51,647 nt of DNA, taken from sequence record DRR723986_4788; one strand, written 5' to 3'. Below, piece by piece: positions 9,613 to 34,078 of the stretch; the stretch's first letter is position 1; each line of letters starts with the position of its first letter. The notes under the pieces are model-generated. The model saw only the letters and a list, made by a program, of their open reading frames with translations, was not told where the DNA came from and ran no database searches. The translations under genes and the position numbers were made by a program.

Positions 9613-9629
9613 GTTTGGTGGAGGCGGCG
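9613..9629 (-). repeat. att site: distal copy of ssrA 3' end (outer end of island B)
   Basis: GTTTGGTGGAGGCGGCG identical to 33684-33700; 15 bp shared with 23031-23045. Confidence 0.9.
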
Positions 9630-10664: not shown

Positions 10665-10791
10665 AATTGTAGGTAGTCGCCTGGAATGCCGGACGCCAGA
10701 AAGAAGCAGAACTGATTGGTAACCGCGGCGGGATGAACTCGTTCCTAAGCATAAGTTTTCTAGAAACTATGAAACTTCAACGGAAAGACAG

Positions 10792-12270: not shown

Positions 12271-12272
12271 TT

Positions 12273-18067: not shown

Positions 18068-18217
18068 TGTGCCATTACTTCGTTTCTAAGCGCATGACCT
18101 ATCCCTAGCCAAAAGTATTTGTATTATGGCTACTGTCATCGCGCGCGAAGGATGGTGTAGATCTGAATCAGCCTACACGCAGTTAGTCGGAGGATTGATC
18201 GATGAGCGAATGTCAGC

Positions 18218-19399
18218 TTAACCGTATGCTGCTTTTGTCTCGTTAATAAATGTTTCTAACGAATAGAGATTTCCCCTAATAGACTCTGGATAAGATTTGT
18301 GTATCGGCTCTGGGACTACCAACTTCACGTTCTCGCTGCGCATTTCGTTAAATTGGTTCTCAGACACGCCATTCTGGAGTGTAAATAAATACGATGTATC
18401 TATCCTATTGGCCTCGTTCAGAATCTGCCGCCAGCGATCTTTTACCGTTGTTTTTACGGCGAGCATTCTCAGTTTGTTAGCTGGGTACTGAGTGTCGTGG
18501 TATTTCTCGCAACTAGGAAATAGAAAATCAGGCTTTTTGTTGGTCTCAGTTGTGCACTGCGTTCCAAACTGAGTTAGTCCTTCTTCACGGAATATATTTT
18601 CGAGGTGTAGTTCCAGGGACTTTCCGGAGCGAGACTTTCTTCTATTTGAGATTGAGTTTGCTAGCTTTATAAAGTCATCAACATCATTAAAACCATCGGT
18701 TATCAGTGGTAGAGAGTGATAGTTCTCTATGAGTTTGAATAGGTCAAACTCATGCTGTCTGCGTCTTACAATTCGTGAATCAGCTGGTAGGTCGGAATGA
18801 AACCTACTCTCAAAGAGATAATTGATGATGTCGCTGCCCGAAGGAAAGTTTGAATTCCATTCCGGTGGATACTTTTCTACCTTCAGAGTCCCAGCTGGAA
18901 GGATGCCCTCGAAGATCACGTCTCCACGCTCAAAGTAGTGGCTTTGTGGGTCTACCTCGCCGATTCTTTCTTCGAGGTAATTTTCTTCCTCGATATCTCT
19001 GCACACCCATGCGCGCATATATTCGGAATCACCAAGATCGGCGTTAAACGCAAAAACAGCTATCGCACCTGTTTTCTCTTTGTCTTGTAAGGGGTTGTAG
19101 CCAACACCCTGTTTCCATCGTGTTATTCGTTTTTCATTCCGCGTTTTTTGATTGTAATAGATGACGCGAAGTCTCTGCTCAGGCACGTCATCTGAGTCGA
19201 CAACCGCGTGGAAAAAGACTTCTGGATTAGCAACATCCTTGCGATTCAATGACGGAAATATTGAGCTCAAAACAGGCTTCGGGAAGTAGATTCCAGCCTG
19301 GTGGCTTTGTGTCGCGCCTGTATCATTTGCTGACAGCCTTTTTACATAGACGATCCATTTTCTGTCGGCCACGTCATGAATCCAGTCCCTGAGCTTCAT
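18218..19399 (-). CDS. EcoRII-like type II restriction endonuclease (probably CCWGG)
   Basis: N-terminal effector domain YVKRLSANDTGAT..HQAGIY; catalytic domain SNRRKSRSGKSLE, KKPDFLFP, AVKTTVKDRWRQIL. Confidence 0.9.
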   Translation of the reverse strand: MKLRDWIHDVADRKWIVYVKRLSANDTGATQSHQAGIYFPKPVLSSIFPSLNRKDVANPEVFFHAVVDSDDVPEQRLRVIYYNQKTRNEKRITRWKQGVGYNPLQDKEKTGAIAVFAFNADLGDSEYMRAWVCRDIEEENYLEERIGEVDPQSHYFERGDVIFEGILPAGTLKVEKYPPEWNSNFPSGSDIINYLFESRFHSDLPADSRIVRRRQHEFDLFKLIENYHSLPLITDGFNDVDDFIKLANSISNRRKSRSGKSLELHLENIFREEGLTQFGTQCTTETNKKPDFLFPSCEKYHDTQYPANKLRMLAVKTTVKDRWRQILNEANRIDTSYLFTLQNGVSENQFNEMRSENVKLVVPEPIHKSYPESIRGNLYSLETFINETKAAYG

Positions 19400-19400
19400 T

Positions 19401-19808
19401 CTATTCCTTCAGTAGTCCTATAAGTTTACTTTGGTAAGTATCCGCTTTTACCTCACACTCCCAGACGATTATCACGCGCCAGCCTAGTTCTTCGAGTTGC
19501 GCGTAATTTCGTTTATCGCGAGCTACGTTTTCGGCGAATTTCTTCATCCAGAAGTCAGTATTTGTCTTGGGTTGGTATGAGTACCTGCATCCCTCATGTC
19601 GGTGCCAATAGCAGCCGTTCACGAATACTGCGGATCGATATTTTCTGAGTGTTATGTCCGGCTTTCCGGGAAGGTTGGCTCGGTGAAGGCTGTAGCGGTA
19701 GCCATTAGCGTGCAAAAACTTTCTTACCATTACCTCCGGCTTGGTGTCGCGCGATCCGATGCGCGACATATTGTAGCTTCGCGTTTTTTTGTCGTGTACA
19801 TCCGCCAT
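19401..19808 (-). CDS. vsr: Very-short-patch repair endonuclease
   Basis: MADVH..TRSYNMSRI, DTKPE, LPGKPDI, FVNGCYWHRH, GWRVIIVWEC. Confidence 0.93.
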   Translation of the reverse strand: MADVHDKKTRSYNMSRIGSRDTKPEVMVRKFLHANGYRYSLHRANLPGKPDITLRKYRSAVFVNGCYWHRHEGCRYSYQPKTNTDFWMKKFAENVARDKRNYAQLEELGWRVIIVWECEVKADTYQSKLIGLLKE

Positions 19809-21050
19809 CTACTTCCCGTATACGGCGCGGCCTTTCAACAGGCAGCCATTATTTGAGGCAGAAATCGTCTCTGCCATGACTCGAGTAATGGAACTGGCAA
19901 TCTGCTCAACTAGAAGTGGTACAACGCTATTTCCAAACTGGCGATACGCTTGGGTGTCAGAGACTACTTGTGGGAAGCCGTTGTCGTGACCAAATAGAGT
20001 GGCATATCTGTCTACGTATCCGAGCAAATACTTTGCTTCCTCGGGCGTAATTCGCCGTGGATTCTTCCAACCCTCCTGCTTTATCAGGATTTCAGAGCCA
20101 TCCTTGTGATAACGAGCGCTCATCGTTCTAGCCACGTCCTTGCCTGTATTGAGGCCGTATCCAAAGCCATTTCCTTTAGCTTCATGCTTGGCGCGATAGT
20201 CCCTTAAATACTTCCAGAGCTTGTTGGAAAGCATGTACTTCTTGTCCGGCTCTGACTTTGAGAGTATGTCGGCAAGGACGGGGACATGATCGATTTCTGG
20301 ATCCGGCCACCGAAATTGTATTTGATCCTCTCGACCAAATACGCGGCGATCAAAGCAAACGATAAATATTCGCTCTCTCTTTTGTGGAACCCAATGCCGA
20401 GCGTTGATTACTTTGTGATAAACAATGTAGTCCCGATCAAGCAAGCTCTCCTCAATGACCTGCCATGTTCTGCCTTTGTCATGTGATTTCAGGTTTTTTA
20501 CGTTCTCGAGAAAGAGAACTGGAGGGCGCTTTGCATCAACGATGTCTAGTATCGTGAAAAAGAGGTTGCCCTGCTTTGCGTCCTCAAAGCCGTGGGCTCG
20601 CCCTAAGGAATTCTTCTTCGATACTCCGGCTAGAGAAAAGGGTTGGCATGGAAAGCCAGCGCACAGGACATCATGGTCAGGTACTACCGAAGGTGACAGC
20701 TGGCGAATGTCCTCAGTGTAGACATCTTTATCGCCGTACCATGCTTGGTAGGTCTTTGCTGCGTACTTGTCCCACTCACTGGTGAACACGCAGTTACCAC
20801 CAACAGCGGTCAGCGCACTTCTGAATCCACCTATACCTGCAAACAGATCGATGAAATTAAATGGCACCTGACCGTAGACCCTCTCTGGCTCCTTAGCTTG
20901 AGCGAAGAGCGGTATTTGGTTGGTGTTCTCTTGAGCGAGTGAAATTATTTGTTTCAGATATTCGTTCTGTGAGACCCCGTCTGGGATTGAGTCTCTGAGC
21001 CACGCAAGCTGCGATTCATCAAGATCGCGTATCAGAATGCTGTTTGTCAT
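19809..21050 (-). CDS. dcm: DNA (cytosine-5)-methyltransferase, Dcm/M.EcoRII-like, with N-terminal RHH-like extension
   Basis: FIDLFAGIGG, GFPCQPFS, LENVKNL, QKRERIFIV, RTMSARYHKDGSEILI, YRQFGNSV; start may instead be ATG 21080. Confidence 0.9.
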   Translation of the reverse strand: MTNSILIRDLDESQLAWLRDSIPDGVSQNEYLKQIISLAQENTNQIPLFAQAKEPERVYGQVPFNFIDLFAGIGGFRSALTAVGGNCVFTSEWDKYAAKTYQAWYGDKDVYTEDIRQLSPSVVPDHDVLCAGFPCQPFSLAGVSKKNSLGRAHGFEDAKQGNLFFTILDIVDAKRPPVLFLENVKNLKSHDKGRTWQVIEESLLDRDYIVYHKVINARHWVPQKRERIFIVCFDRRVFGREDQIQFRWPDPEIDHVPVLADILSKSEPDKKYMLSNKLWKYLRDYRAKHEAKGNGFGYGLNTGKDVARTMSARYHKDGSEILIKQEGWKNPRRITPEEAKYLLGYVDRYATLFGHDNGFPQVVSDTQAYRQFGNSVVPLLVEQIASSITRVMAETISASNNGCLLKGRAVYGK

Positions 21051-21060
21051 CTCTTGATCC

Positions 21061-21098
21061 CTGGGAAGTATTGATATCATGATATCAGTTATTCCCAG
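21061..21098. promoter_or_regulatory. Palindromic putative operator upstream of dcm
   Basis: CTGGGAA-N4-TGATATCATGATATCA-N4-TTCCCAG, with a perfect 16-bp central palindrome at 21072-21087. Confidence 0.65.
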
Positions 21099-21519
21099 AT
21101 ATCCACAGCAGTGGCAGATTGCTATGCTCGAAAATACTACACGTGCTGGAATTTCGACCAGACTAGAAAGGTGGGCAGTGGTGCACCTCGACTCTGTAAA
21201 CTAGGAAAGTAGATTTGCCAGTTCTCGATCGCTGTAACTGCCTGCTTGAGGAGATGGAAGGGGCGCGAATGGGGGCGTCACATCTTATGCAGTCAAAAAA
21301 AATTATATAAATCAGAGGGATAAGGGGGCAGTTCGATTGGCTCCAACTCAAGCGAACTAGTATTTCACCTAAGGTCTGACGGAATTCATGTTCAAATCTA
21401 CAGTAGTTACTCTATCACCGCATACGTGGCCCAAGGGAGTTCCGACAGAAATCACCGCTGCAAGCGGACTGAATCGCCCCGGGTTTGTCGGAGGCTCCAT
21501 ATCTTGAGAGGATGGAGCT

Positions 21520-21840
21520 ATGAGCAAATCAAAACGATACTCCCCGGAGTTCCGGGAACGGGCGGTCCGCATGCTGCTTGACCACAAATCTGAATACGAC
21601 TCGGAATGGGCGGCGATGACCGCCATCGCTGTGAAGCTGGGCTGTACAGCCGAGACTTTGCGGTCGTGGGTCAGGCAAGCGGAGAAGGACCTCGGTCTTC
21701 GCGACGGCGTCACTAGCGACGAGCGGAAGCGCCTCAAGGATCTAGAACGGGAGAACCGTGAGCTGAAGCGCGCTAACGAGATTCTCCGTAAGGCTTCTGC
21801 TTATTTTGCCCAGGCGGAGCTCGACCGCCGACCGAAGTGA
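21520..21840 (+). CDS. IS3 transposase OrfA
   Basis: [16 protein letters not shown], leucine zipper [26 protein letters not shown]. Confidence 0.92.
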
Positions 21841-22739
21841 TGGTGTCGTTTATAGACGATCACCGTGAGGAGTACGGGGTCGAGCCGATCTGTAGCCAGT
21901 TGCCGATTGCCCCGTCCACCTTCTACGACCATCAGGACAAGCGCAGCCACCCGGAGCGGCGGTCAAGCCGCGCCAAGCAGGATGATGTCCTGTGCCCGGA
22001 GGTCCAGCGGGTCTGGGAGGAAAACTTCAAGGTATACGGCGCCCATAAGGTCTGGAAGCAGCTAAACCGAGAGGACTTCGAGGTGGCCCGCTGTACGGTC
22101 GAACGGCTGATGAAGCGCCTGGGACTGGAAGGCGCCAGGCGTGGCAGGGGCTGCCGGACGACGATTCCGGATACCGGAGCGGACCGGCCTGCTGACCTGG
22201 TGCAACGCCAGTTTGTGGCAGATCGTCCTAACCAGCTGTGGGTGGCCGACATCACCTACGTGGCGACCTGGCGTGGATTCGCTTATGTGGCCTTCGTCAT
22301 CGACGTGTTTTCCCGCCACATCGTTGGCTGGCGGGTGGCCAGCTCGATGCGCACGGACCTGGTGCTGGATGCTCTGGAACACGCTGTGTGGGCCCGTGGC
22401 GGTGCACAGGGCGTGATACACCACAGCGACAGGGGAAGTCAGTATCTGTCGATCCGCTACTCCGAGCGGCTGCCGGAGGCCGGCATGGAGTCTTCAGTGG
22501 GGAGCCGGGGCGACTCTTACGACAACGCCCTGGCCGAGACCATCAACGGTTTATACAAGACGGAGGTTATTCGACCACGCGGCCCTTGGCGCACCGTGGA
22601 CGAGGTGGAATACGCAACGCTGGAATGGGTTGACTGGTTCAACAACCGGCGTCTGCTGAAACCTATCGGTGATATCCCGCCGGTAGAATTGGAATTGGCG
22701 TATTATCGCCAGGAGGAAGAGTCAGCCATTGCGGCCTGA
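21837..22739 (+). CDS. IS3 transposase OrfB (DDE domain; normally fused to OrfA by -1 frameshift)
   Basis: [31 protein letters not shown]. Confidence 0.92.
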
Positions 22740-22779
22740 CTCAAACAAACGAGCCTCCGGAATACCCGGGGCGATTCAA

Positions 22780-22842
22780 AAAGATCTTGTAGTCTTTTTC
22801 CCTGGGCACTGCATTCCTTGCTTGAATTGCCGTTATGGGCAT
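22780..22842 (-). pseudogene. 5' remnant (21 codons) of a P4-type tyrosine integrase, truncated at the IS3 end
   Basis: AGGAGG RBS and ATG 22842 give MPITAIQARNAVPREKDYKIF, resembling P4-like integrase arm-binding N-termini; expected position and orientation next to att. Confidence 0.75.
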
Positions 22843-23030
22843 TGGTGACCTCCTGTCGTCCATCAATGGTGGGGGCACCTGATACTGATGGGGAGATGTA
22901 CCCCCAACCCGTACCCCCGATTAGCAAGGATATTCTCGCATGCTGCAGGACGTTATCAGGTGCCTACGAACCACAAATCCCCTGAGAATCAGGGGTTTGT
23001 GGACGTAGTGAGATGTTGCAGGATAAATGA

Positions 23031-23049
23031 TTGGTGGAGGCGGCGGGAG
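23031..23049 (-). repeat. att site: copy of ssrA 3' end at the island A/B junction
   Basis: TTGGTGGAGGCGGCGGGAG identical to 33686-33704. Confidence 0.92.
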
Positions 23050-23181
23050 CCAAATTATTGATGTAACCCTTTGATATTATTGGGGATGATGTCCGGTAGT
23101 TTGGGGAACCGGGGCCACTGTTCCCCAAATTGTGCTAAGCCGGGTTCAAATCCCGCTTATGCAACGGGTTCAATTCCCGAC

Positions 23182-23313
23182 TTACGGCTTGCCCCGGTAA
23201 AGGTCCCGGAGTAGTTGTTGCTTCCGTTCTTCCAGAATCTTTACCTCCCGGCGTAGTTGTTCCTTCCGGTGGGCTAACCGTTCCGTTTGTCCTGGTCTGT
23301 TCCTTTGAGTCAT
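23182..23313 (-). CDS. Small coiled-coil hypothetical protein (43 aa)
   Basis: GGAGG RBS (23322-23326) and ATG 23313; MTQRNRPGQTERLAHRKEQLRREVKILEERKQQLLRDLYRGKP. Confidence 0.5.
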   Translation of the reverse strand: MTQRNRPGQTERLAHRKEQLRREVKILEERKQQLLRDLYRGKP

Positions 23314-23659
23314 AAGCTGGTCCTCCGCATCTTTGGATTTTACCACCACCAGGGGGTCTACCTGTAGCACCTGGCTACGTGGGGGGAGGGGGCTTGGGTC
23401 CGAACCCTAGCGCAAGCCCCGGGCTAGCGGAGAGTCAAACCACGTGTGAGACACGGCCCCAAAAAGTGCTAGGGGCCGAGATTCCTAGCCCACAAGCCCA
23501 TACCAAACCGAATGGTCGCATCTGACGTTCCCCGGGTGGTGGGAAGGTGATTCAATGCCGCGCTGTATCACCTGTGTTGTGGCGACCTTTTGAATCCGCG
23601 CCTCAAAGCGGACAGTTTTCGGGAATGTTTGAATCTTCACTAGGGGGCCAGGAATGACT

Positions 23660-23733
23660 CGCTAACACGTCAATAACCACCTCAGCTTGCTGTGTCTGGC
23701 GCCGAAGGAGTGAGGTTGATTGACTTGTTAGAC
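23660..23733 (-). other. Integron attC recombination site (74 bp)
   Basis: Minus strand R'' GTCTAAC, 5 nt, L'' AATCAACC ... L' GGTTATT, 5 nt, R' GTTAGCG; L'' has the extra unpaired C; starts 25 bp after the acyltransferase stop. Confidence 0.8.
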
Positions 23734-23758
23734 TCCGTCTCCACAAATTATCCTAAAA

Positions 23759-24898
23759 CTATCTAAGGAGTTTGGTAGAAAAATACTTCGCTAAAGATAT
23801 GGAATACTTGTCAATAGTTACCTCAAAGGCCCAAGAAAAAGCAAAGCAAATTACTAGATAAGAAGAAAATATAAACAGCAAAGAATATTCAGATAGTGGG
23901 AGTGTGATGTATAGATAGCTAGTTATTGATGGCAGCACTATGAAATGAACTAAGTATAGAGGAAATGATATCCGACCAAGGAACTGAATGGACTTTGATT
24001 CAAGAAATCTTTTTCCTACGCCATTGACTACCGCTAATACGATTAGTAACGCTGACACTGTATTGTAGAAAGTTTTCTTATCAAATATGACGCCACCAAA
24101 TAAATTTATATCGGGTAAAAGCTGATATACCGGAACTTTGCTTTGAAATGCACCAAAAAATAATCCTGCAATTAGCGCGGATAGAGCATATCCTCTGCTG
24201 ACCCTAAATCTATTTAGGAGAGCGCCAATGAAAATGGAAATGTAATAAATAGATTCGTTTTTATAAACCCAATACAACAAAAGAATTGCGAAAGATAACG
24301 TCAATATCTCGTATCTAGTCGGCTTGCACAAATAGTACACAAGTAGAAAAATGGATCCTAGAAATTCAATTTTTAAGGTCCAAAGAGGTGGGTTTAGTAG
24401 CCCGTCTCCATACAATATTGATTTATAAGTTGCCAACTCAAAATAGTTAGAGAATGTTATTCCTTCGGGGAAAAAATTGCTCAGCCAGCTTGTTGATCCA
24501 GAAATTTCAGCCGCTTCCGTATTATAAAATCCGCCCATTTCGTAGATTACATAGGACAGAGTAACAGATGCAGCTATTGGTAAATTTAAGCGAATGTATC
24601 GACCCCATAATCGGCTTTTAATCGCATCTAAATTATTTCTGTAATACGGCATCGATAGTACAAACCCGGAAAGAACGAAAAAAATAAGTACAGCCAAATG
24701 GCCGTTATAAGATAGAGATATTAATGGAGTCTGAAGTAGTTCAAAGAGCTTACTTGGATTGCTATTCTCAGAAAAAATATCCGGATAATTCCTATGAAGA
24801 AGCATAGGCGTAAAAGCACATGCAAAGTGAGCTAACGCCACATTAAGAGCAGCTAACCCTCTGAGTCCGTCAACGGGCTTGTTATGGATCATATTCAT
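23759..24898 (-). CDS. Acyltransferase-3 (OafA/YrhL-like) membrane O-acyltransferase, low-GC cassette cargo
   Basis: DGLRGLAALNV, AVLIFFVLSGFVL, RYIRL, LWTLKIE, LGRISFPLYLVH; many TM helices. Confidence 0.88.
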   Translation of the reverse strand: MNMIHNKPVDGLRGLAALNVALAHFACAFTPMLLHRNYPDIFSENSNPSKLFELLQTPLISLSYNGHLAVLIFFVLSGFVLSMPYYRNNLDAIKSRLWGRYIRLNLPIAASVTLSYVIYEMGGFYNTEAAEISGSTSWLSNFFPEGITFSNYFELATYKSILYGDGLLNPPLWTLKIEFLGSIFLLVYYLCKPTRYEILTLSFAILLLYWVYKNESIYYISIFIGALLNRFRVSRGYALSALIAGLFFGAFQSKVPVYQLLPDINLFGGVIFDKKTFYNTVSALLIVLAVVNGVGKRFLESKSIQFLGRISFPLYLVHFIVLPSITSYLYITLPLSEYSLLFIFSSYLVICFAFSWAFEVTIDKYSISLAKYFSTKLLR

Positions 24899-25202
24899 AA
24901 TAGCTTTTAACTCTATTGGAGCCTAACATCGAGCTACAGAGAACGGGGTTGTTAAGACGTTCCCACTCAACGCAGATTTGGCTTATTTGGTAAATTGCCT
25001 CAAGATCAATCTCCTGGCAAATTCTTTTGGCGCGTTTAACGGTGGACTAGAGGCCATTTATTGGCCGAAAATGATGCTTAGTTAGCGCCCACGATTAGGC
25101 GAAAGCGGGCTTGCCCCAACAGTGCATGGAAGGGGGTTTTGCTTCCCGCTTGTATGGCCGGAAGCAGGACCCACATTGCTTAGATTGCTGCCGCTGCCGT
25201 CG

Positions 25203-26912
25203 TCACCCTATCCAACCTATAGACGCAAAAGTTTCGGAGCCCCCGCGTTCTAGCATTAGCTCCGTTGCGGACAAGACGGCCATTAGCCCGTCTATTTTCA
25301 TTTGGCCGGACCCGGATAGGCCGGCGTCGTCTTTAGCGAACCGCCTACCTTGCGGCCCGTCTTCAAGGCGTAAATTTTGAATGTTGAAAGACAACAACGG
25401 GGAGTGAACTACCCGTAGTTTTTGGTCTAACACCATTGCCTCTAACGCGTCATAGGCCCTTACCAGGGTCCACCCTTGTTTAACTTCTTCAAACTGCCCA
25501 TGCCCTATTACTTCCTGTTCCAACCGGGGCACAAAACCACTCCGTCCGTGGCGGTCCCCTCCGCATAAGGACCCGTAACCGCCTATGCCGGATAGCCGGA
25601 TAGAAGCGATTACCGCGGCGTCTAGGGCGTCTACGGTGTCGTATAGGGTTAGTTCGTCACACGCTATAGCCTTGTCATAAATGGCCCGCAGGAAGTCCGG
25701 GGCGGCGGTGTATCCGTGGCGGGAGAGATATTGCTTTACCCGGACGCACAACACCCCGGGGCTTTCCGGGTTGTCCCACCAGGCAAAGGCAACCGCAAAG
25801 GGGTCATTTACCCCGCCCGGGTCTAGTGCAACGGCCCTGGGTTTAGCGGCAGGGTCTAGGGGGACCGGGACGCCTTCCCACCCGCTTTGTAATACGGACC
25901 GGCCTACGGACCCTTCGTTGGGTTCGATACCTAACCGCTGGCTAAGTAACCGGGCTAGGGTAGCGGGGGACTCGGTACGCTTTGCCTCCGCAAACTCCCG
26001 GGCCATTTCCGCGGGGTCCATTGTTCCGCCAGGTACGCAAGAGGGCATACCCCGCCACCATTGTCCCGGGTCCTCGGGGTCTAGGTCCTGCCGGTGGGTA
26101 GGCCATTCGAAAAGTACCGGGAGGAACGACGGGTCGTGTATTTTCCCGTCCCGTACTTGTCGGGCGTAATTCAACAACTCGGACCACACCCCGGCAGACT
26201 TCTCCGGGGGCGAAGTTGATATATGAATTTCCAAGAACTCCGCACCCCAATTACTTCCCCCGCGGCGGGCCTGGTCTAGAACGTTTGCGAACTGTTTACA
26301 TTCCAATGCGCTGCTATGGGTTTCGTCCGAAATGAGGCAAATAGGGCGCCGGCCTATAGCGGAGTCTATTTTTACCGGGGCAATCTCTAGCGTTATCCCC
26401 GACTCTACGTGTACCAACTGCCGCTTGGCCGTGTAGGTGCGGAATTGGTCCTTCAACTCCGGGTCTAACTTGATACTTTCTAATACGTGCTGAAACACAA
26501 TGTCGCTAGTCCGCACGTTGGGGGAGAGAATCATAATCAGGGCCCGGTGGTGTAGCCCCCGCATTGCGTAATCCACCATTAGGGCTTGTGCGAATGCGCT
26601 GACCAAGACGGACTTGCCGCTACCTTTTCCGCATTTGATAAATACCCGGTTTACTTCCCGGTTGCCTTCTTCGTCTAGTTGGCCGAAGACGTAGCGCGTA
26701 ATCTCCCGTTGCCAAGCCATTGCCGTATCCGCCAGCCTTACCCCGGCCCGCATTTGTGACAACGTGAATAAGCCCACCAGGTCCCACATACGTTGGCCCC
26801 TCCCGTCATAGTCGGGGGTGGCCGGTACCATATCTTCCGGGGTGGTCGCTAAGTCCCAACCGGGGTTGGCGGTTGTCCCGATAGGGCGCCGGTACTTCTT
26901 GGGCTTAGTCAT
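25203..26912 (-). CDS. Phage terminase large subunit (HK97/cos-like)
   Basis: MAWQ adenine motif, Walker A GKGSGKS, Walker B LISDETH, nuclease ALDPGGVND and KIDGLMA; ATGA overlap with terS. Confidence 0.85.
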   Translation of the reverse strand: MTKPKKYRRPIGTTANPGWDLATTPEDMVPATPDYDGRGQRMWDLVGLFTLSQMRAGVRLADTAMAWQREITRYVFGQLDEEGNREVNRVFIKCGKGSGKSVLVSAFAQALMVDYAMRGLHHRALIMILSPNVRTSDIVFQHVLESIKLDPELKDQFRTYTAKRQLVHVESGITLEIAPVKIDSAIGRRPICLISDETHSSALECKQFANVLDQARRGGSNWGAEFLEIHISTSPPEKSAGVWSELLNYARQVRDGKIHDPSFLPVLFEWPTHRQDLDPEDPGQWWRGMPSCVPGGTMDPAEMAREFAEAKRTESPATLARLLSQRLGIEPNEGSVGRSVLQSGWEGVPVPLDPAAKPRAVALDPGGVNDPFAVAFAWWDNPESPGVLCVRVKQYLSRHGYTAAPDFLRAIYDKAIACDELTLYDTVDALDAAVIASIRLSGIGGYGSLCGGDRHGRSGFVPRLEQEVIGHGQFEEVKQGWTLVRAYDALEAMVLDQKLRVVHSPLLSFNIQNLRLEDGPQGRRFAKDDAGLSGSGQMKIDGLMAVLSATELMLERGGSETFASIGWIG

Positions 26913-27337
26913 TTGCGGACCGCCTCCGCCCAAACGCCCTTAGTCTTAGACGCTACGGTGGGTTCTTCCTTCACGATAGGTTGGCTACGGACTACGGTTA
27001 GGCCGAGACAAGCCCCCGCTTTTGCCAGGGTGTTTACCACGGTTGGGTAACTCACCATTGCCGGGTTTTTCTTCCCGTCCGGTAGGGTCACACCCTCGAC
27101 AACGATAGACGCCACAATTTCTTGGAGGGCGTGGCTTCCGGCTACGTAGGCCACCACCAGGGGTAGGCGGTCATCGTGCCATAGCCCTTCTTGGTACAGG
27201 TTCTTACAAACGCGCCGGTATTCCACCCGGGCACCTATCGGTAAACAGGAAGGCATTGGGGGTGGTTTCCAAGCCGGTTGTTTGGGTTTGGCGGTAGGTG
27301 ATACCCGAAGGGTCCCCTTTGCGTTTAGTTGGGCCAT
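26909..27337 (-). CDS. Phage terminase small subunit (P27-like)
   Basis: GGAGG RBS and ATG 27337; PPPMPSCL..ARVEYRRV, KKNPA, LGLT; lies between HNH and terL. Confidence 0.75.
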   Translation of the reverse strand: MAQLNAKGTLRVSPTAKPKQPAWKPPPMPSCLPIGARVEYRRVCKNLYQEGLWHDDRLPLVVAYVAGSHALQEIVASIVVEGVTLPDGKKNPAMVSYPTVVNTLAKAGACLGLTVVRSQPIVKEEPTVASKTKGVWAEAVRK

Positions 27338-27348
27338 AAGTGCCTCCG

Positions 27349-27777
27349 TTAGTCCTTCTTGTCCTGGTACCGGCGTAGTAACCGTTCGGCTATCTCGCCG
27401 GCCGTTTGCGGGCTTCCAGGGGCCCGCTTTGGACCCCCGGAATAAAATCCGTGGGTCCCCGTGTGGTCTAGACGCCCCTTCTTTGTTTGGGACTCCCCCC
27501 GCCCCCTTCCGGTACTGCGGGCCCGGAAGGGGTTGTAAGACTCCCGCGTGGTCTTGGTTGAATGGCACGACTGGCACAAACTCTGCCACCCGGCAGGGTC
27601 CCAAAACGTTTGTTGCCAGTTGTCTCCGTGTCCGTGTTTGTGGTCCACGACGCGGGCAGGGGAACCGCAGGTAGCACAGTTGGCATTGGCAGCCAGGAAC
27701 CTAGCCCGGGCCTTTTGCCAACGTGCGGTCCGGTATAGTTTCTTCCGGGCGGCGGTGTCGGGGCTCAACTTAGCCAT
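27349..27777 (-). CDS. HNH endonuclease (HK97 gp74-like terminase cofactor)
   Basis: YRTARWQKARARFL, CATC, VDH, WQSLCQSCHSTKT; ATG 27777 overlaps the upstream stop. Confidence 0.85.
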   Translation of the reverse strand: MAKLSPDTAARKKLYRTARWQKARARFLAANANCATCGSPARVVDHKHGHGDNWQQTFWDPAGWQSLCQSCHSTKTTRESYNPFRARSTGRGRGESQTKKGRLDHTGTHGFYSGGPKRAPGSPQTAGEIAERLLRRYQDKKD

Positions 27778-28222
27778 TGGGCAAACTCGTACATCGGCCA
27801 AGTCCCAGGTACTTCCGGGTTTCCTGGTCCTTAATGAATACCTTTGTTCGTTGGCCGGAGGACTGTTGTAACGCTATATATCCCGCTTCCTCCAACTGAA
27901 TTAGGGCGTTCCGGTAGGTCCAACGGGAGAAACCGCAAGCCGTAATTACTCCGCGGGGTGGCTTGGGGTATTCGGTTTTATGGGGAATCTTCCCGTATAG
28001 GCATAACAACAGGTACGCCTTCGATGCGGGGCTACCTAAGTTGGCTACCCGGCACCATAACGAAAGGGGAATATCCGGGAGCCACAACTTAGATAGGGGA
28101 TCTTCCTTTGGGGCCTGTCCTTGTTCCTGCCCCGCTAGATACTCCCGCTTCAGTCTAGCCAATTCGTTAGCCTGTTCCTCGGATACACGGAATCTCTCTA
28201 TGTCCAATACTTCGTCTACCAC
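27770..28222 (-). CDS. Winged-helix-like DNA-binding protein, candidate replication initiator/regulator
   Basis: C-terminal GFSRWTYRNALIQLEEAGYIALQQSSGQRTKVFI fits a wHTH pattern; GGAG RBS; adjacent to the iteron array. Confidence 0.6.
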   Translation of the reverse strand: MVDEVLDIERFRVSEEQANELARLKREYLAGQEQGQAPKEDPLSKLWLPDIPLSLWCRVANLGSPASKAYLLLCLYGKIPHKTEYPKPPRGVITACGFSRWTYRNALIQLEEAGYIALQQSSGQRTKVFIKDQETRKYLGLGRCTSLPNG

Positions 28223-28325
28223 TACTTAATCTCCCTAATACCTACCTACTAGTTATTAATTAATCTCTATACAGATAAGAAACAGATAGAACAGATTAGA
28301 AACATATATATATGGGACCCGGGTG

Positions 28326-28447
28326 TGAGAAATCTCACTACCCCGTTGAGAAATCTCACCACTACCGTTGAGAAATCTCACCACTACCGGTGAGAAATCT
28401 CACCACCCACTGTTGAGAAATCTCAACACCACTGTTGAGAAATCTCA
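28326..28447. repeat. Six tandem copies of the near-palindrome TGAGAAATCTCA (putative iterons/origin)
   Basis: Copies start at 28326, 28347, 28369, 28391, 28414 and 28436 (period 21-23 bp); AT-rich tract at ~28245-28313. Confidence 0.85.
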
Positions 28448-28467
28448 CCACTCCAATTCCGTCCTGG

Positions 28468-30261
28468 TTAGGCATTGCCGGCGGCCCTCCGCGGTTCGTT
28501 AGCAAGGGCCGTTATCCGTTTGTAGAAGTCCGTCCCCCGTTCGTCTGCATACACTTCCGGGTAGTCGTAACGTTTAACGTCTACCCGGATTGGGCCACCC
28601 GCTACGGCCAGGGCGGACGCTTCCATTTCCGCCCGGGCTACCGCCAGTTGTTCGTCCGCGGTTGCGATAGGCACACAAAACATTAGGGCGTCGTGTACGG
28701 TTGCGATTGCCGGCACCCCCGCATTGGTGCAACGGATAGTCGCAACTCTGAGAATGTCGCTACCGGTACTTTGAATAATCCAATTCCCGTTTGACCGTTC
28801 GTTTAGGTCCTGCCCGGGGCCTACCTGTATCCGCCAACCGCAGTTGGTATATACCGGGAGGGAGAGGGCGGCCCGGTGCCGGACTTCTTCTATGAATTTC
28901 CAAAAGTCCCGGTATACCTCGAAATGCCGGTGTAGTAGTTCCCGGGCCTCTACCGTGTGAACTCCGGCCTTTAGCGCTAGGGTCTGTTCGCCCATACCGT
29001 ATTGGACTCCGAGGACCAGGGACTTACAGACGGTCCGTATGTCTCCGTGTGTCGCTTTCGTCGCACCCGTAGGGGCTAGGCCGGCGTCTATCGCAAACGC
29101 CATATAGGGGTCGCCGGACTCGTAGGCGGCCCGTAACTTTGCGTCGCCGGATAGGTGGGCCGCTATCGCTAGTTCTTGGCTAGCGAAGTCCAAGTAGGCC
29201 AACGTGTAATCCTCCGGGGCACGTAGGAAGGACCGGGACCACATAGACAAACCGAACAGATACCGGCTATTGCTAGGTTGGCTCCGGGCGGTCTTGCTAG
29301 TGAAGGGCCGCAACGGGGCCCGGCTACGTCCGTCCGGGGATACTTGAACTTTGTTGTTTCGGAATTGGGCCAGGGCCACGCGTAACTCCCGCAACGGGTA
29401 CAAGTGCGGGTAGGACTTCGCCATATCGGAGAACGTGGATTCCGATAGGGCAAGGGCGCCAGTTGGCAATCGCGGCCAGGGCGTCCCGGTGCGGCGTAGG
29501 TAGTCCGCGAACCGGGCGGAACTGAACTTGTCTCCCTCGAAGACGTGGTAGCCGTGGGCCGTATCTACTTCCGCAATTAACGCGGACTTAATGCTATCGA
29601 AGTTGGCCCGTACCTGGTCCCACGTGGGCACGTCTACCGGCAAGCCCTCCGCGGCCATACGGATACACTCCGCCATAAACCGGCCGCGGATAATGGCTTG
29701 GCCTATAGCCTTCGTGGGGTCCTTTGTCGGGGCCTCCGAGACTATTAGCGGCAGGTCCACCCCCAACAGGGCCACGGTGTCCTCTACGTCTTCCGCACAG
29801 TATTCAAGGATTATCGGCACGTCTTCCGCGGTCCACTCCCCGGAACCTATCATTACCTGCATGTGCTTTTTGTGCCCGGTGTCGCGGACCTTTAACCCCC
29901 GGCGTTTGATACTCGCCAACAGGGAGCCCGCGGGGTAGCCGGCGCCATTCACTAGCCGGCGTTCCTCCACCATTAGGTCCAACCATTTCGGGGGAAGGGG
30001 CCAACCGAGTTTAAGGAAACACCCGGCCTCCGCCTCCACGTTATAGGCTACAAACAATTCGGAACCGTCACTGGCAAAGGGGCAGTCTGTTAAGCCTCCG
30101 GGGGCCAGGACTAGCCGGACCCCCGTTAGGACTTCTTGCGCCACCATACAAACAACGTTCTGCGGTAAGACGTGGGCCCGGTCTAACTCATACTCAAAAT
30201 CCAGGACCCACACCCGGGCAATCCCTAGCCCCGCGAAATACTCCTTTGCCTGTAAGTCCAC
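28468..30261 (-). CDS. Family-A DNA polymerase (3'-5' exo plus polymerase, no 5'-3' exo)
   Basis: ExoI LDFEY, ExoIII YCAEDV; motif A LDFASQELAIAAHLSGD, motif B RTVCKSLVLGVQYGMG, motif C VHDAL. Confidence 0.9.
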   Translation of the reverse strand: MDLQAKEYFAGLGIARVWVLDFEYELDRAHVLPQNVVCMVAQEVLTGVRLVLAPGGLTDCPFASDGSELFVAYNVEAEAGCFLKLGWPLPPKWLDLMVEERRLVNGAGYPAGSLLASIKRRGLKVRDTGHKKHMQVMIGSGEWTAEDVPIILEYCAEDVEDTVALLGVDLPLIVSEAPTKDPTKAIGQAIIRGRFMAECIRMAAEGLPVDVPTWDQVRANFDSIKSALIAEVDTAHGYHVFEGDKFSSARFADYLRRTGTPWPRLPTGALALSESTFSDMAKSYPHLYPLRELRVALAQFRNNKVQVSPDGRSRAPLRPFTSKTARSQPSNSRYLFGLSMWSRSFLRAPEDYTLAYLDFASQELAIAAHLSGDAKLRAAYESGDPYMAFAIDAGLAPTGATKATHGDIRTVCKSLVLGVQYGMGEQTLALKAGVHTVEARELLHRHFEVYRDFWKFIEEVRHRAALSLPVYTNCGWRIQVGPGQDLNERSNGNWIIQSTGSDILRVATIRCTNAGVPAIATVHDALMFCVPIATADEQLAVARAEMEASALAVAGGPIRVDVKRYDYPEVYADERGTDFYKRITALANEPRRAAGNA

Positions 30262-30266
30262 GCCCG

Positions 30267-30896
30267 TTACTCCTGCCCGGTTAGTTGGCGGATTAGGGGG
30301 TGGTCTACGTCCGCGACGATGTTAGACGCGCCAAATGCCAGTTTGAGAATGTCCGGCATTTGTTCCCGGGGCCACAACGGGGCCGCGGTAATGCCGGGGG
30401 CCTTGTACAAGTCATACCGGCCCGCTGACATATTGGCCGCCATACGGACCCAATTTCCGGTGGCTACCTTCAAGACGTCCATAGCGGAGTCGTTCCAAGA
30501 ATTTTTAGGCCCGTCCGTGGAGGGCGTGGGTACCGGCCATAGGAACGGGACCGACTGGCGGTTGACGCACAGGACCAACAGTTTTACCGCGTGGTCCCCG
30601 GGCAGTTGTGCGGCCACCCCCGGGTCTAACAAGTAGGTTTCCCGGGCCTCCCTTACTTCGATTATCGGGGCGGAGAGGCGGAGTTTGGCGTGGGCCTGGA
30701 AGAACTCCTGTTTATTCGGCTTGCGGACCGAAATACCTAACAGGACCTTCTCCACCCCCAACTGTCCGACGTCGGTTGACGCGTCTACCGCATACCGCGC
30801 CGGGTCAAACAGGTTGTCTAGCGGGTCTTGGGTTGTCGCATCTTCCGCGGGTACTTCTTCCGGGATAATGCTTTCTACTTTGCTGTTACTGGTCAT
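30267..30896 (-). CDS. Hypothetical protein upstream of PolA (possible SSB/accessory factor)
   Basis: Acidic N-terminus; VRKPNKQEFF, PFLWPV, NSWNDSA, WVRM; 5 bp from the polymerase start. Confidence 0.7.
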   Translation of the reverse strand: MTSNSKVESIIPEEVPAEDATTQDPLDNLFDPARYAVDASTDVGQLGVEKVLLGISVRKPNKQEFFQAHAKLRLSAPIIEVREARETYLLDPGVAAQLPGDHAVKLLVLCVNRQSVPFLWPVPTPSTDGPKNSWNDSAMDVLKVATGNWVRMAANMSAGRYDLYKAPGITAAPLWPREQMPDILKLAFGASNIVADVDHPLIRQLTGQE

Positions 30897-31339
30897 TGGT
30901 TATGCCCCTGTGCTTCGATTAGTTGGCGGACGCGTTGCCCAAATGTCCGGACGGTGTGCAACTCGCAACGGTTTTCCCGGAGTAACCTGGTAGTCCGTGG
31001 GTAGTTACTTGCGACTAGGCCGGGGCTGACTCCCATAAAGACCAGGAAGGCGTCCCGTTCTGTGCTGTCCTCGATACGGTCTAGAAGTAATCGCTTAATG
31101 CCGGAGCCGGAGTAGCCCTCGGTATTGCTGGAATTGATTACAAAGACCCGGCCGCCGATGTTGGCAACAATGTCTATGGGTTTTTCCGGTGGCCGGAGCC
31201 TCCGGGGGTAGGGGCATACGTGGTAGGAGTTTGGCGTGGTTTCGACTTCTTCCCCGGTGGCTAGTTTTTGTAGCCCGGCCCGCTTGAGAACTCCCGTTAG
31301 CGGCGGCAAACCGCGTAGGTGTTTGGCGTGTGTATTCAT
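30893..31339 (-). CDS. Hypothetical protein
   Basis: 148 aa; ATGA overlaps with both neighbours. Confidence 0.6.
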   Translation of the reverse strand: MNTHAKHLRGLPPLTGVLKRAGLQKLATGEEVETTPNSYHVCPYPRRLRPPEKPIDIVANIGGRVFVINSSNTEGYSGSGIKRLLLDRIEDSTERDAFLVFMGVSPGLVASNYPRTTRLLRENRCELHTVRTFGQRVRQLIEAQGHNQ

Positions 31340-31581
31340 TCGGGGAAGCCCTCCTTAGCGATACGACAAAAGTATTCGTACACTTCGTCGTCGTTAAAAA
31401 GTTGCTTCTCCCCGCGGCTCCGGCCCTTGATAGGGGTGGGAAAACGTGGGTCCCGCTTGATAACAGTTATAAAGTATTTCCGCCCGAATAGTTTTCTATC
31501 CCCGCGGTTCCCGTACTTCTCTAAGATGCCCTCGCAATCAATGATTGGCGGCAGGGCGTGTGCTTGTGCATACATTGTCAA
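31336..31581 (-). CDS. AlpA/excisionase-like DNA-binding protein
   Basis: IKRDPRFPTPIK...LFNDDEVYEYF resembles AlpA/Xis; 81 aa; GGAG RBS. Confidence 0.65.
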   Translation of the reverse strand: MTMYAQAHALPPIIDCEGILEKYGNRGDRKLFGRKYFITVIKRDPRFPTPIKGRSRGEKQLFNDDEVYEYFCRIAKEGFPE

Positions 31582-31682
31582 CGTCTCCCTCTGTAGTTGA
31601 GTGACGCTAACTAAACTATGCGGCGGACCTTTTTGGTTCTAACCCACAACTATAGAAAATCAGTAGGGTTGTGGGTTTGACT

Positions 31683-32270
31683 CTAGCGGGGGTGCCTTCT
31701 TTTGTAGGACTTTATGATGCGGGCGGTATCTTCGCCGTATATGAGGGAGAAGACTTGATACGCCTTGCCGGTTACATTCCCGTTGATTGATAGGTGCGGG
31801 AAGTGCGACTGCCAAGCGCGGGCGTACATATCGAAAGTAACGGCCTCTACGTTACTCCGCCCGGACCGTCTCCCGGGCCGTTGGGCCTCTAATGCTTCGA
31901 CACAACCTATTTGTAGGTCTTCCAGGACCGCGGCAAGTACCTCGGTTTTTTGGGCGGAAAGCCCTATCAGAATCCGGTCCTCCGGGTTCATATAGTTAAG
32001 ACTATGGACCAATGCTTCCGCGGCTTTCTTCACGTCCGCGACTGCCGCGGAGTCTCGTAGTTGTTCCTGGTCGCGGTCTATCCGCCGGTATTTTTCCAAG
32101 ATTCCGCGGACAATTGGGTCCGCTTGGATAGCCGAAAGTCCTTGTATTTCGATTAGGAACCCCCGCAATGTTTCTAGGCTTTCCCGGGGGAGTATCCGTT
32201 GTAGTTCTTCAACTCCGAAGGCGGGTTGGGTATGCCCCGGGACAAACTGCGTGTGTTTAATCTTTGGCAT
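31683..32270 (-). CDS. Hypothetical protein coupled to the integrase
   Basis: 195-aa ORF overlapping the integrase 3' end. Confidence 0.6.
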   Translation of the reverse strand: MPKIKHTQFVPGHTQPAFGVEELQRILPRESLETLRGFLIEIQGLSAIQADPIVRGILEKYRRIDRDQEQLRDSAAVADVKKAAEALVHSLNYMNPEDRILIGLSAQKTEVLAAVLEDLQIGCVEALEAQRPGRRSGRSNVEAVTFDMYARAWQSHFPHLSINGNVTGKAYQVFSLIYGEDTARIIKSYKRRHPR

Positions 32271-33492
32271 TGTCGCGGGCCTCGTCTAGTTTGTTTGCCC
32301 ACCAGACAAGGACCCGGCCGGCGCCTTCTGCCGGTGCTACCCGGAAATAGGCCCCTTCAACTTCGCTGGCAACTTGGTGGTCTAGTACCGCTTCAATCCA
32401 ACTCTTAGCAAACAGGGGGCGTCCGTCTTCCCCTATCGCGTTTTCCGCTTGGGTCTTCAACGAACTACGCCAACCGTGGGGTACGTGCCGGCCGCGTAGT
32501 CCCAGGCATACCCGTAAGTGTTTATCTATCGTCTCCGGGCGTATATGCCCAACCTTGTTAGGTGACGCGAAGACTTTACCGGTGTGCTTGGCCCGGGGTA
32601 CCCGCTTTAGCAGGGCTACCGCTTGGGGTGGTAGGTGTATTACCTGGTCCCCGCGGGTATCGTCTTTGACCTTCTTGCGGGCCCGGGGGATTCTCCACAC
32701 CCCCGCGTCTATGTCGAACTCCGACCATTCCGCTTCTACGACGTCGGAAGCCCGCTGACACGTGTACGCTTGGAACTCGGTTATAACCCGCACTAGAAAA
32801 CTTGCGTCGCTGGTTTCGTTTGCTTCCAGGACCGCGGCCAGGTCTTCCCACGCTACCAGGGCGGGTAGGTTCTTCTTCCGGGTCTTCCGGGACGTGGCGG
32901 AGTGTATCCGGGCAACCGAGGGAACCGGGTTGGCCGCTACCACCCCCAAACCCACCAGGTAATCAAACAACTTGGAAAGGGCGGACCGAATCTTACTCTC
33001 GGTATCCGGCAACTTCGCCCGGACGGGGGCCAGGTAGGTATATAACTCCGCCGGCGTTATCTCCCCGACTGGCATAGCCCATAGCGGGGTAGGTTTAACG
33101 TGGTTATCTACCCGGCCTTGCATATTGTCCGCGTACTTCTCGGACCAACTACCGGTAGGGCCGGAGACGATCCGGTGGAAGACTTCCCAAACGGTACCTA
33201 ACGCGGAGGCGCTAGAAAGCCCTCCTACCGCCTTTTGGGGGACGGGGGCTAGTTTCTCGGGGTTAGCCCGCAAATGGCTTCCCGCGGCTCTGAGACGCTT
33301 TAAATCGGCTTTAAGGACCCTTCTACGGATAGTCTCTAGGGGGTGGTCCTTGTATTGGCCCGCGGGTAGCTTCACCCGCTGGTAACAGGTAACGGAACCG
33401 TCCCGGTTCTTCCGCCAATACAGTTGGTCTACGTCGCTACGCTTTGTGCCGGCTTCCAAGCCGTTGACTTCCGCCAGTGTAAGTAATGCCAT
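32257..33492 (-). CDS. Tyrosine recombinase/integrase
   Basis: Catalytic set CQRASDV (R), KKVK (K), HGWR, LDH, GAY; adjacent to the ssrA att. Confidence 0.9.
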   Translation of the reverse strand: MALLTLAEVNGLEAGTKRSDVDQLYWRKNRDGSVTCYQRVKLPAGQYKDHPLETIRRRVLKADLKRLRAAGSHLRANPEKLAPVPQKAVGGLSSASALGTVWEVFHRIVSGPTGSWSEKYADNMQGRVDNHVKPTPLWAMPVGEITPAELYTYLAPVRAKLPDTESKIRSALSKLFDYLVGLGVVAANPVPSVARIHSATSRKTRKKNLPALVAWEDLAAVLEANETSDASFLVRVITEFQAYTCQRASDVVEAEWSEFDIDAGVWRIPRARKKVKDDTRGDQVIHLPPQAVALLKRVPRAKHTGKVFASPNKVGHIRPETIDKHLRVCLGLRGRHVPHGWRSSLKTQAENAIGEDGRPLFAKSWIEAVLDHQVASEVEGAYFRVAPAEGAGRVLVWWANKLDEARDNAKD

Positions 33493-33639
33493 TCCCTAAA
33501 ATCCGGTAATCGGTCCAACTCGGTTAGGGAACGGGGGCCCTGTTCCCTAGAACTAGAAAGACGCTACTTTACCACAGGTTTGACAGTTGTTTAGCTAATA
33601 GTTAGCTTTGGGCCTGTATTTACAGGGATTTACGGACAC

Positions 33640-33662
33640 AAAAAAGGCCCCGCTTGGGGGCC
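33640..33662 (-). terminator. Rho-independent terminator downstream of ssrA, supplied by island A
   Basis: Minus strand GGCCCC-CAAGC-GGGGCC-TTTTTT. Confidence 0.7.
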
Positions 33663-33686
33663 CGCTTGAATGGCTAAAATGTGGTT

Positions 33687-34078
33687 TGGTGGAGGCGGCG
33701 GGAGTTGAACCCGCGTCCGCCAGTACTCTGCCTTTGGCTCTACATGCTTAGATTCCGTCGATTAATTTAACCGCAAACAGCCCGACGGGCAGGACGTTCT
33801 TGGCGATCCCGATAATTGTTTAGCGGCTCAACCTCGAGCAAATATCACCGCGATCCAGTTCTGTATGACAGTCAGTAGCGCGGGGCTGGAACCTTGCTAA
33901 AGACCGCCAGGGCCGAAGCACCTGGATGGTGTTACAAAGGGCTACTTACGCAGCCAGTTGTGCACCGTAGTTGTCGTCATTGGCAACTAATAGTTTGCAG
34001 CTTTGGATTAACGTGATTGGCTACCATCACGGCATGCACCTCAGGGTTCGTTACCGTCGTCGAATCCGTATCGCCCCC
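33687..34078 (-). ncRNA. ssrA: tmRNA, 392 nt, tag peptide ANDDNYGAQLAA
   Basis: 5' GGGGGCG...GGATTCGAC pairs with 3' CGCCTCCACCA (G3-U); T-arm GCGGGTTCAACTCCCGC; tag ORF at 33946-33984. Confidence 0.97.

Follow-up and report, generated by a model that had tools for sequence, protein, structure and literature searches.

How does a replicon built around a family-A DNA polymerase, with no recognisable primase or helicase, start its replication and unwind its DNA? The question is raised by sequence record DRR723986_4788, a stretch of 51,647 nucleotides referred to here at its full length as the window, where an original prediction made from the letters alone had placed a replication module at positions 27770-30896. 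The four parts of that module, a 209-aa protein (p209), a 597-aa family-A polymerase (PolA), a repeat array and a 150-aa winged helix-turn-helix (wHTH) protein, were found where they had been predicted. Small integrative elements and phage satellites are known to replicate by way of primase-helicase initiators or through the machinery of a helper. From sequence comparison we consider it probable that 27770-30896 serves as the replication module of a complete 10.6-kb element integrated at ssrA, drawn from a large and essentially uncharacterised family of tyrosine-integrase elements, many of which appear to be phage-satellite-like.

Relatives of the module are widely spread. A large protein search returned 506 relatives of PolA (best identity 59%), and in a collection of species genomes at least 504 of 600 candidate stretches encode one. 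The best 80 of these PolA-bearing stretches, hereafter the genome loci, span Alpha-, Beta- and Gammaproteobacteria, Planctomycetota, Bryobacterales, Nitrospinota, Elusimicrobiota, Gemmatimonadota and others. A gene-neighbourhood survey, as suggested with the original prediction, revealed p209 and PolA as a fixed pair: PolA is immediately preceded by a p209 relative in 77 of the 80 loci, and in the other three PolA starts no more than 81 bases from the contig end. Clustering of open reading frames (ORFs) gave the usual order as integrase, a variable gene of about 200 aa, an 80-aa gene (AlpA), p209, PolA and a wHTH protein of 130-150 aa; some loci have the integrase behind the small wHTH gene instead, beside a tRNA. 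Several PolA modules can share one genome, as do L058, L059 and L060 in a single Bryobacterales chromosome and L034 and L044 in Marivivens geojensis; the PolA ORF of L058 is split in the ORF calls, into 350 and 216 aa. A cluster of small conserved ORFs (c11, 95-182 aa) is found between p209 and PolA in L019 and L020 and after the wHTH gene in L078 and L079. The viral collection IMG/VR contributed 44 further loci, 27 of them (L081-L107) true relatives.

PolA aligns to solved chains of Pol I, the closest structure being 8jrb_A (E 1.7e-33). Its palm and fingers contain all three family-A motifs, motif A (Dx4E), motif B (Rx3Kx7YG) and motif C (HD), and in a family alignment of 214 sequences (120 proteins from the large protein search, 81 loci plus window, and 13 viral loci) the catalytic columns overall are kept in 207-214 members: D358 in all 214, E363, R409, K413 and Y421 in 213, H523 and D524 in 212, ExoI D21/E23 in 209 and ExoIII Y154/D158 in 213. 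The alignment bears out the earlier description of motifs A, B, C, ExoI and ExoIII beside a divergent ExoII, with the divergence now seen to be shared family-wide: the ExoII stretch AYNVEAE is a family trait, and its carboxylate is Glu78 in 210 of the 214 sequences, where Asp is usual. No Pfam exonuclease family matched PolA at E 0.1 or better. Leu417 in motif B is present in 213 sequences, and 12 other viral PolAs carry Phe or Tyr there; this residue governs sugar selection in the Klenow, Taq and T7 polymerases, and Leu417 may affect nucleotide choice. Ala525, directly after the HD of motif C, is also fixed in the family. The resulting 'HDA' was considered as a special feature and rejected, since Ser, Ala or Glu occupies the same position in the 12 other viral PolAs.

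The phylogeny that had likewise been proposed for PolA sets the family apart as a separate clade. In a quick maximum-likelihood tree, 36 family rows and five rows from a distant group with only a small terminase (TerS) split from 15 other PolAs, including those of mycobacteriophage CRB2 and a Dinoroseobacter plasmid as well as a bacterial Pol I, with a Shimodaira-Hasegawa-like approximate likelihood ratio (SH-aLRT) of 98. No close relative was found among 50,697 phage records and 72,556 plasmids, where identity reached at most 28.5% over partial length. One distant family-A polymerase (516 aa), on the conjugative Dinoroseobacter shibae plasmid pDSHI01 (L127, 1501-4744), directly follows an annotated RNA-directed DNA polymerase gene, a pairing that differs from that of p209 and PolA.

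The partner protein p209 matched no family in Pfam, PHROGs or NCBIfam, and a PDB sequence search with its profile gave no match at E up to 10. Among 1.84 billion proteins the same profile found 5,744 representative clusters (50% identity) at E <=1e-3, with 4,314 at <=1e-10. In its AlphaFold2 (AF2) model, built from 47 sequences with a predicted local distance difference test score (pLDDT) of 87.6, a beta-rich core with helices follows a tail of residues 1-50. The N-terminus had been described as acidic, which is correct, and in the model this acidic tail is disordered as well (pLDDT about 60); it carries a near-invariant Phe30 within a PF(D/N)P stretch. An exhaustive structure aligner returned weak matches, all with Z <5, that are mostly nucleic-acid binders of the oligonucleotide/oligosaccharide-binding (OB) fold: BRCA2 OB (Z 4.1), T4 gp32 (Z 3.9 over 134 residues) and RB69 gp32 (Z 3.7), together with HIN domains, RPA and the single-stranded DNA-binding protein (SSB) of PRD1. 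OB-fold toxin B subunits are also among the matches. The earlier proposal that p209 is an SSB is weakly supported: the fold is confident, but the matches to OB-fold binders of single-stranded DNA (ssDNA) are weak (Z 3.0-4.1). Judged by its model, p209 is probably an OB-fold ssDNA-binding partner of PolA, a lead and not a result. The ESM Atlas was uninformative for p209 (scores of 0.89 to viral clusters without names), and prediction of a PolA-p209 complex, with runs at 0.00, 0.65 and 0.00, weighs neither way.

Iteron-type origins set three or more direct repeats, each near 20 bp and in tandem, next to AT-rich DNA and the gene of an initiator. Beyond PolA the module has this layout, with six 22-bp units, an 89-bp stretch of 29% GC and, adjacent, the wHTH gene. 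Exact 8-mer counting proved too insensitive for iterons, and Tandem Repeats Finder (TRF) was used in its place. The core GAGAAATCTCA occurs in six exact copies within the array against 0.55 expected in the whole window, and none of 100 shuffles reached seven matches. The AT-rich stretch runs into, and contains, the ribosome-binding site of the wHTH gene. Both the array and the wHTH protein had been predicted to follow PolA, and both recur there in relatives. First, the window wHTH protein matches the cluster that follows PolA in relatives (hhalign 96.8%, E 2.1e-10), two such PolA-downstream clusters match each other (92%), and a wHTH hidden Markov model (HMM) finds its target at the first or second gene after PolA in 52 of 73 loci, this being the number with a gene called after PolA. 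Second, TRF detected tandem arrays of 20-24 bp between -100 and +400 of the PolA stop in 16 of 73 loci. Their density there, 0.47 per kb, is about 36-fold that in the rest of the loci (0.013 per kb). Of the 22 arrays (period >=8) near the PolA stop, 14 have a period of 22, and unit sequences vary by locus.

The module lies in a complete integrative element. Positions 23031-33704, about 10.6 kb, are bounded by 19-bp repeats of the 3' end of the transfer-messenger RNA (tmRNA) gene and have a GC content of 54% versus 64% in the flanks. The minus strand carries every gene from 33492 down to 23759, in the order integrase, p195, an 81-aa ORF, p148, p209, PolA, a 245-bp spacer, wHTH, HNH, TerS, large terminase (TerL) and acyltransferase (Table 1). 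The eleven island proteins, annotated with Pfam, PHROGs and NCBIfam, come from ORFs that are all open and tightly coupled, and none of the annotated ORFs is structural, tail or lysis, a make-up shared with the small att-bounded, integrase-bearing phage-inducible chromosomal islands (PICIs). The att core had no match in any of the 124 loci examined.

Circular relatives show what such an element contains. Six viral contigs have identical ends of 69-127 bp, which indicates circular assembly. In the circle L084 (8,418 bp, 127-bp terminal overlap), whose TerL gene spans the junction, the order runs integrase, a pair of small ORFs, a relative of p209, PolA, wHTH, a 22-bp array, HNH, TerS and TerL. 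Its p209 is 43% identical to that of the window, PolA 39%, HNH 58% and TerL 38%, its wHTH-family protein matches at 93%, and 4.5 copies of the 22-bp unit stand right after the wHTH gene. This is the gene order of the window less the acyltransferase, so the island is a whole element rather than a prophage remnant. L089, also circular (10,866 bp), adds a portal (E 6.6e-93) and a capsid (E 3.3e-34), whereas L104 (circular, 9.2 kb) and four relatives of about 9 kb hold integrase, a p209 relative (98.9%), PolA and TerS as sole terminase. L081, L083 and L095 have other large terminases, with a protease-capsid fusion in L081 too. Four att-bounded elements in genomes (L045, L046, L057 and L069) lie between tRNA-derived repeats and measure 10.2-15.5 kb; their cargo is defence-like or, in one of them, terminase, and at least one of them, L045, has a very large cargo gene of helicase-nuclease type.

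These relatives bear on the idea that the island derives by decay from a larger temperate phage, which has lost its helicase-primase and structural genes and left a non-functional module. The presence of terminases in the absence of genes for capsid, tail and lysis, an acyltransferase of low GC after TerL and an IS3-type element just outside attR would all suit such decay. An 8.4-kb circle with the same order and nothing more does not, and neither do two intact att copies, open and coupled ORFs with conserved catalytic residues, or bounded relatives of 10-15.5 kb, and we regard decay as a very improbable account of the locus.

No primase or helicase family was detected by Pfam, PHROGs or NCBIfam among the eleven island proteins, nor in the proteins of the circular L084, L089 and L104, and the island proteins contain no Walker A motif; on this point the original prediction held in the relatives as well as in the window. 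Four complete elements without such genes invite the proposal that PolA, alone or with p209, starts chains primer-free and displaces strands, with no need of primase or helicase. The p209-PolA pair is indeed the deepest conserved unit, kept even in the distant TerS-only group, the p209 family is huge and has no assigned function, and Leu417 and Ala525 are fixed, unusual residues. Motifs A, B and C have, however, otherwise ordinary residues, the Ala after HD occurs in other viral PolAs, and the conserved iterons and wHTH protein point to a classical initiator-dependent origin. We know of no family-A DNA polymerase that starts chains de novo. Self-priming thus seems to us quite unlikely, and we would give equally long odds to the stronger form of the idea, that the p209 and PolA clade constitutes a minimal self-sufficient replicase, starting and completing the replication of small circles as a family-A counterpart of the PolB of pipolins. 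If true, it would mean that a self-sufficient PolA-p209 replicase is shared by many phage satellites and small integrative elements from different bacterial phyla.

A primer could also come from a nick. The HNH gene adjoins the wHTH gene in the window, and priming by a nick had been suggested for that reason. In such a scheme the HNH protein would nick the origin and PolA would extend the 3'-OH, in a rolling circle whose products would suit packaging. We surveyed 107 family loci (80 genome, 27 viral) with 13 packaging queries. HNH was detected in five of the 107 and adjoins terminase genes in L084 and L089, as in the window, while the module is kept without HNH in the great majority of loci; the gene does not travel with PolA. 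An HNH gene next to a P27-type small terminase is a known packaging component (Kala et al. 2014, as cited in passages of PMC9618062). Nick priming is accordingly very hard to sustain, and from its company we place HNH among the packaging genes, outside the replication module.

The packaging set itself is peculiar. HNH, TerS and TerL without portal or capsid are found in the window element (25203-27801) and in L084 (6626-8417 and 1-873), and Pfam and PHROGs detected no portal, capsid or head-completion gene in the window island. To our knowledge no described satellite has TerL and HNH but no portal or capsid, and docking on a foreign portal would be unusual. TerS most likely starts at 27337 (142 aa) and not at the TTG of the 231-aa ORF, because of the window translation and the 141-aa TerS of L084. 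Over the family, a packaging gene was found in 19 of the 27 viral loci versus 5 of the 80 genome loci, the viral collection being biased toward such genes.

We postulate that, after excision, wHTH dimers would bind the six palindrome-bearing iterons, which are spaced two helical turns apart; the palindromes in the cores point to dimers, which a spacing of 22 bp would place on one face of the helix. Binding would open the AT-rich stretch alongside. Host or helper phage would provide the primer and any helicase, either as a transcript or R-loop or as DnaB/DnaG brought by the initiator. The putatively proofreading PolA of the element would then copy the circle of 8-15 kb, probably by strand displacement, with p209 as an SSB-like partner on the displaced strand that uses its flexible acidic tail, and the resulting concatemers would feed the HNH-TerS-TerL of the element and the capsids of a helper phage.

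Part of this scheme could run without PolA. The wHTH protein and iterons alone could form a host-dependent replicon, and PLE satellites (phage-inducible chromosomal island-like elements) use the replication machinery of their helper (10.1101/2024.04.22.590561); PolA and p209 might then serve gap repair after excision, interference with the helper or a special DNA product, with copying done by host or helper enzymes via the wHTH protein. The fixed order of p209, PolA, origin and wHTH, co-conserved across phyla, is nevertheless the pattern of a single module, and the proofreading and polymerase residues are strongly conserved. A PolA that is not the replicase of the element is therefore, in our estimate, unlikely, and replication by the PolA module is the account that we prefer.

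Several observations weigh against this account. A Foldseek search of PDB with the p209 model returned nothing at E 1e-3 or better, a search of the same type against BFVD reached at best E 3.4e-3, with some rows named SSB or DNA-binding, and weak fold matches (best Z 4.1) make the SSB function a lead. The wHTH HMM had no match in 21 of the 73 loci, no wHTH protein was detectable in the distant TerS-only group, and TRF detected arrays in only the 16 loci given above. Neither a sigma-70 consensus promoter nor a terminator was found in 27700-28700, nor a DnaA box in the origin, which leaves transcript priming and help from DnaA without sequence support. With packaging genes in 5 of the 80 genome loci, the term satellite may fit part of the family only. 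The lineage-specific proteins p195 and p148, described below, could hide a novel priming function. Lastly, we infer excision, replication, DNA binding and polymerase activity alike from sequence.

Table 1. Features of the ssrA element and its integration target, in ascending window positions.
Feature	Position	Strand	Evidence
attR, displaced copy of the tmRNA 3' end	23031..23049	.	19-mer, 100% identical
Acyltransferase-3 cargo gene	23759..24898	-	Pfam Acyl_transf_3 E 4.3e-18; PHROG 3333 O-acetyltransferase; 36.5% GC
Large terminase (TerL), 576 aa	25203..26933	-	PHROG 9 E 3e-43
Small terminase (TerS), P27 family, 142 aa from ATG at 27337	26909..27337	-	Pfam Terminase_4, PHROG 83 and TIGR01558 on residues 104-210 of the 231-aa ORF
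HNH endonuclease, packaging module	27349..27801	-	PHROG 589 E 5.7e-19; 58% identical to L084 HNH, located before TerS-TerL
Winged-helix protein, 150 aa, candidate iteron-binding initiator	27770..28222	-	PHROG 270 'replication initiation protein' E 9.8e-4; hhalign
AT-rich stretch, 89 bp, 29% GC, with 10-11-bp repeats; candidate DNA-unwinding element	28230..28318	.	Composition; TRF 28271-28308
Iteron array, six 22-bp units, each with imperfect palindrome TGAGA-nn-TCTCA	28326..28452	.	TRF score 182; motif count
Family-A DNA polymerase (PolA), 597 aa: putative N-terminal 3'-5' exonuclease and polymerase domain, without 5' nuclease domain	28468..30261	-	Pfam DNA_pol_A E 2.4e-26; PHROG 17 E 1.1e-39
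p209, conserved PolA partner, candidate ssDNA-binding/accessory protein	30267..30896	-	Directly upstream of PolA; AF2 fold; weak OB-fold matches
p148, lineage-specific ORFan, stop overlapping p209 start	30893..31339	-	No Pfam, PHROG or NCBIfam family
81-aa ORF between p195 and p148, possible excisionase/activator (missed by the original prediction)	31336..31581	-	Translation; AlpA position in relatives
p195, lineage-specific ORFan	31683..32270	-	No Pfam, PHROG or NCBIfam family; no homologue
Tyrosine integrase, 411 aa	32257..33492	-	Pfam Phage_int_M and Phage_integrase; PHROG 1 E 1.2e-32
attL, 19-bp core identical to attR	33686..33704	.	Direct repeat family D2, 100% identity
tmRNA (ssrA), integration target	33687..34078	-	ARAGORN, tag peptide ANDDNYGAQLAA; 3' end of the gene is attL

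Between integrase and p209 the element is variable. No homologue of p195 was found in a near-length word-indexed search of 5.8 billion proteins, which did not cover longer or shorter forms, nor by tblastn in the 80 genome loci, and p195 did not match the 156-aa protein of L084. For p148 the same near-length search, with the same limit on longer and shorter forms, was also empty; a 27-residue match to the 153-aa protein of L084 was seen (E 0.003). Since p195 and p148 have no homologues in the searches made, they cannot belong to the conserved machinery. A structural check had been envisaged for p148, and its AF2 single-sequence model is unusable (pLDDT 40.4); the Atlas gave a weak lead to Mrr_cat-like nucleases (114-131 shared features). 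A TOPRIM-like 'TEGY' stretch in p148 was rejected, with no Pfam support at E up to 5. In relatives the 80-aa cluster (c4) is Phage_AlpA in 11 of 12 members; the 81-aa ORF of the window aligns to it weakly by hhalign (probability 2.9%, E 0.015) through an FPxPI stretch and has no Pfam match. After p195, and before the 81-aa ORF that opens the coupled p148-p209-PolA operon, lies an inverted repeat (31610-31680, ACCCACAAC ... GTTGTGGGT) that could be a terminator or an operator between regulatory and replication units.

At the opposite end, between TerL and attR, the acyltransferase gene has 36.5% GC versus about 54-57% for the element and is absent from L084. It looks like recently acquired cargo and may encode an acetylase acting on O-antigen or the cell surface. 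Just inside each island end, near attL (33515-33545) and attR (23095-23125), there are similar GC-rich palindromes of hairpin type (GGGAAC...GTTCCC), which may be recombinase arm sites or terminators.

The 19-bp tmRNA end, which recurs at 23031-23049, is found again in a degenerate copy at 9615-9633 (84% identity), which indicates two islands in tandem at ssrA. The second, 9615-23031, is bounded by the degenerate att copy and has 44-49% GC. By translation it encodes a Dcm-type cytosine methylase, a Vsr-like protein and a 393-aa endonuclease-like protein, besides large ORFs of 492, 923, 321 and 700 aa, and from these translations it looks like a restriction or defence island. An IS3-type orfA/orfB pair (21520-22739) adjoins attR of the first island.

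Our best reading is that the combination of PolA, p209, wHTH and iterons represents a new, widespread and unnamed module for the replication of small elements that integrate and are often satellite-like. It would be a different and very common solution to their replication, in which a compact, putatively proofreading PolA is locked to an unnamed partner of about 200 aa, usually with a wHTH protein and a 22-bp iteron origin. The module is the mark of 8-15-kb elements from many phyla, which bear genes for terminases, capsids or defence. The approaches to finding satellites that are known to us are built around primase and replication genes, and the module could guide searches for satellites which such finders may miss. 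PolA and p209 may also have practical interest as a compact strand-displacing pair.

Each part of the module recalls a known system. Iteron plasmids and lambda O have iteron origins with a winged-helix initiator, are copied by host Pol III and load DnaB via known partners. The array described here is like theirs in its tandem repeats of about 22 bp on one helix face, beside an AT-rich stretch and a small wHTH gene, but the element described here encodes a polymerase of its own, and no loader can be recognised in it. In T7 the family-A polymerase gp5 works with gp2.5, an OB-fold SSB with an acidic tail, and gp4 is the helicase-primase. Our element similarly joins PolA to a candidate OB-fold protein of about 200 aa with an acidic flexible tail, and the gp32 proteins of T4 and RB69 are among its best structural matches; in contrast to T7, the acidic tail of p209 is N-terminal and a counterpart of gp4 is absent. 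The PolA of mycobacteriophage CRB2 is about 25% identical to ours and has a primase/helicase two genes downstream. Its neighbours gp58 and gp56 were tried as kin of p209 and wHTH and rejected (probability <1%), so that CRB2 differs in having PolA neighbours unrelated to both.

As mobile elements, the closest comparison is with the PICIs and capsid-forming PICIs of Gram-negative bacteria, which are alike in size (8-15 kb), in a terminal integrase and in the AlpA-type gene of the relatives (11 of 12). The order is also PICI-like, with packaging genes after a replication module: L104 has just TerS, the window and L084 have HNH-TerS-TerL, and L089 has portal and capsid in addition. No tail or lysis genes were found. 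The replication modules differ, being PolA, p209 and a small wHTH protein here and Pri-Rep of primase/helicase type in PICIs, and for lack of a Pri-Rep module we do not class the element among the PICIs. The portal and capsid that a capsid-forming PICI has of its own are absent from the window island but present in its relative L089. Among the virion-encapsidated integrative mobile elements (VEIMEs) of marine viromes, some 'module 6' elements are reported to carry small terminases and DNA polymerase genes (PMC9618062). That description fits the circular contigs of about 9 kb with integrase, p209, PolA and TerS (L102-L106); the main-text passages of PMC9618062 on polymerase, terminase and tmRNA describe no polymerase family, partner protein or origin. 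In the literature searched, the module 6 sentence is the one description we found of a PolA-based satellite module, and supplements may hold more. Pipolins, lastly, are integrative elements with a primer-independent PolB (PMC11551731). The earlier suggestion of a PolA counterpart of pipolins stands at the level of architecture, where the resemblance lies: elements bounded by an integrase carry their own DNA polymerase amid variable, exchangeable and often defence-type cargo (L045, L057). The polymerase of the elements described here belongs to family A, not family B, and is accompanied by an iteron origin and a dedicated wHTH protein.

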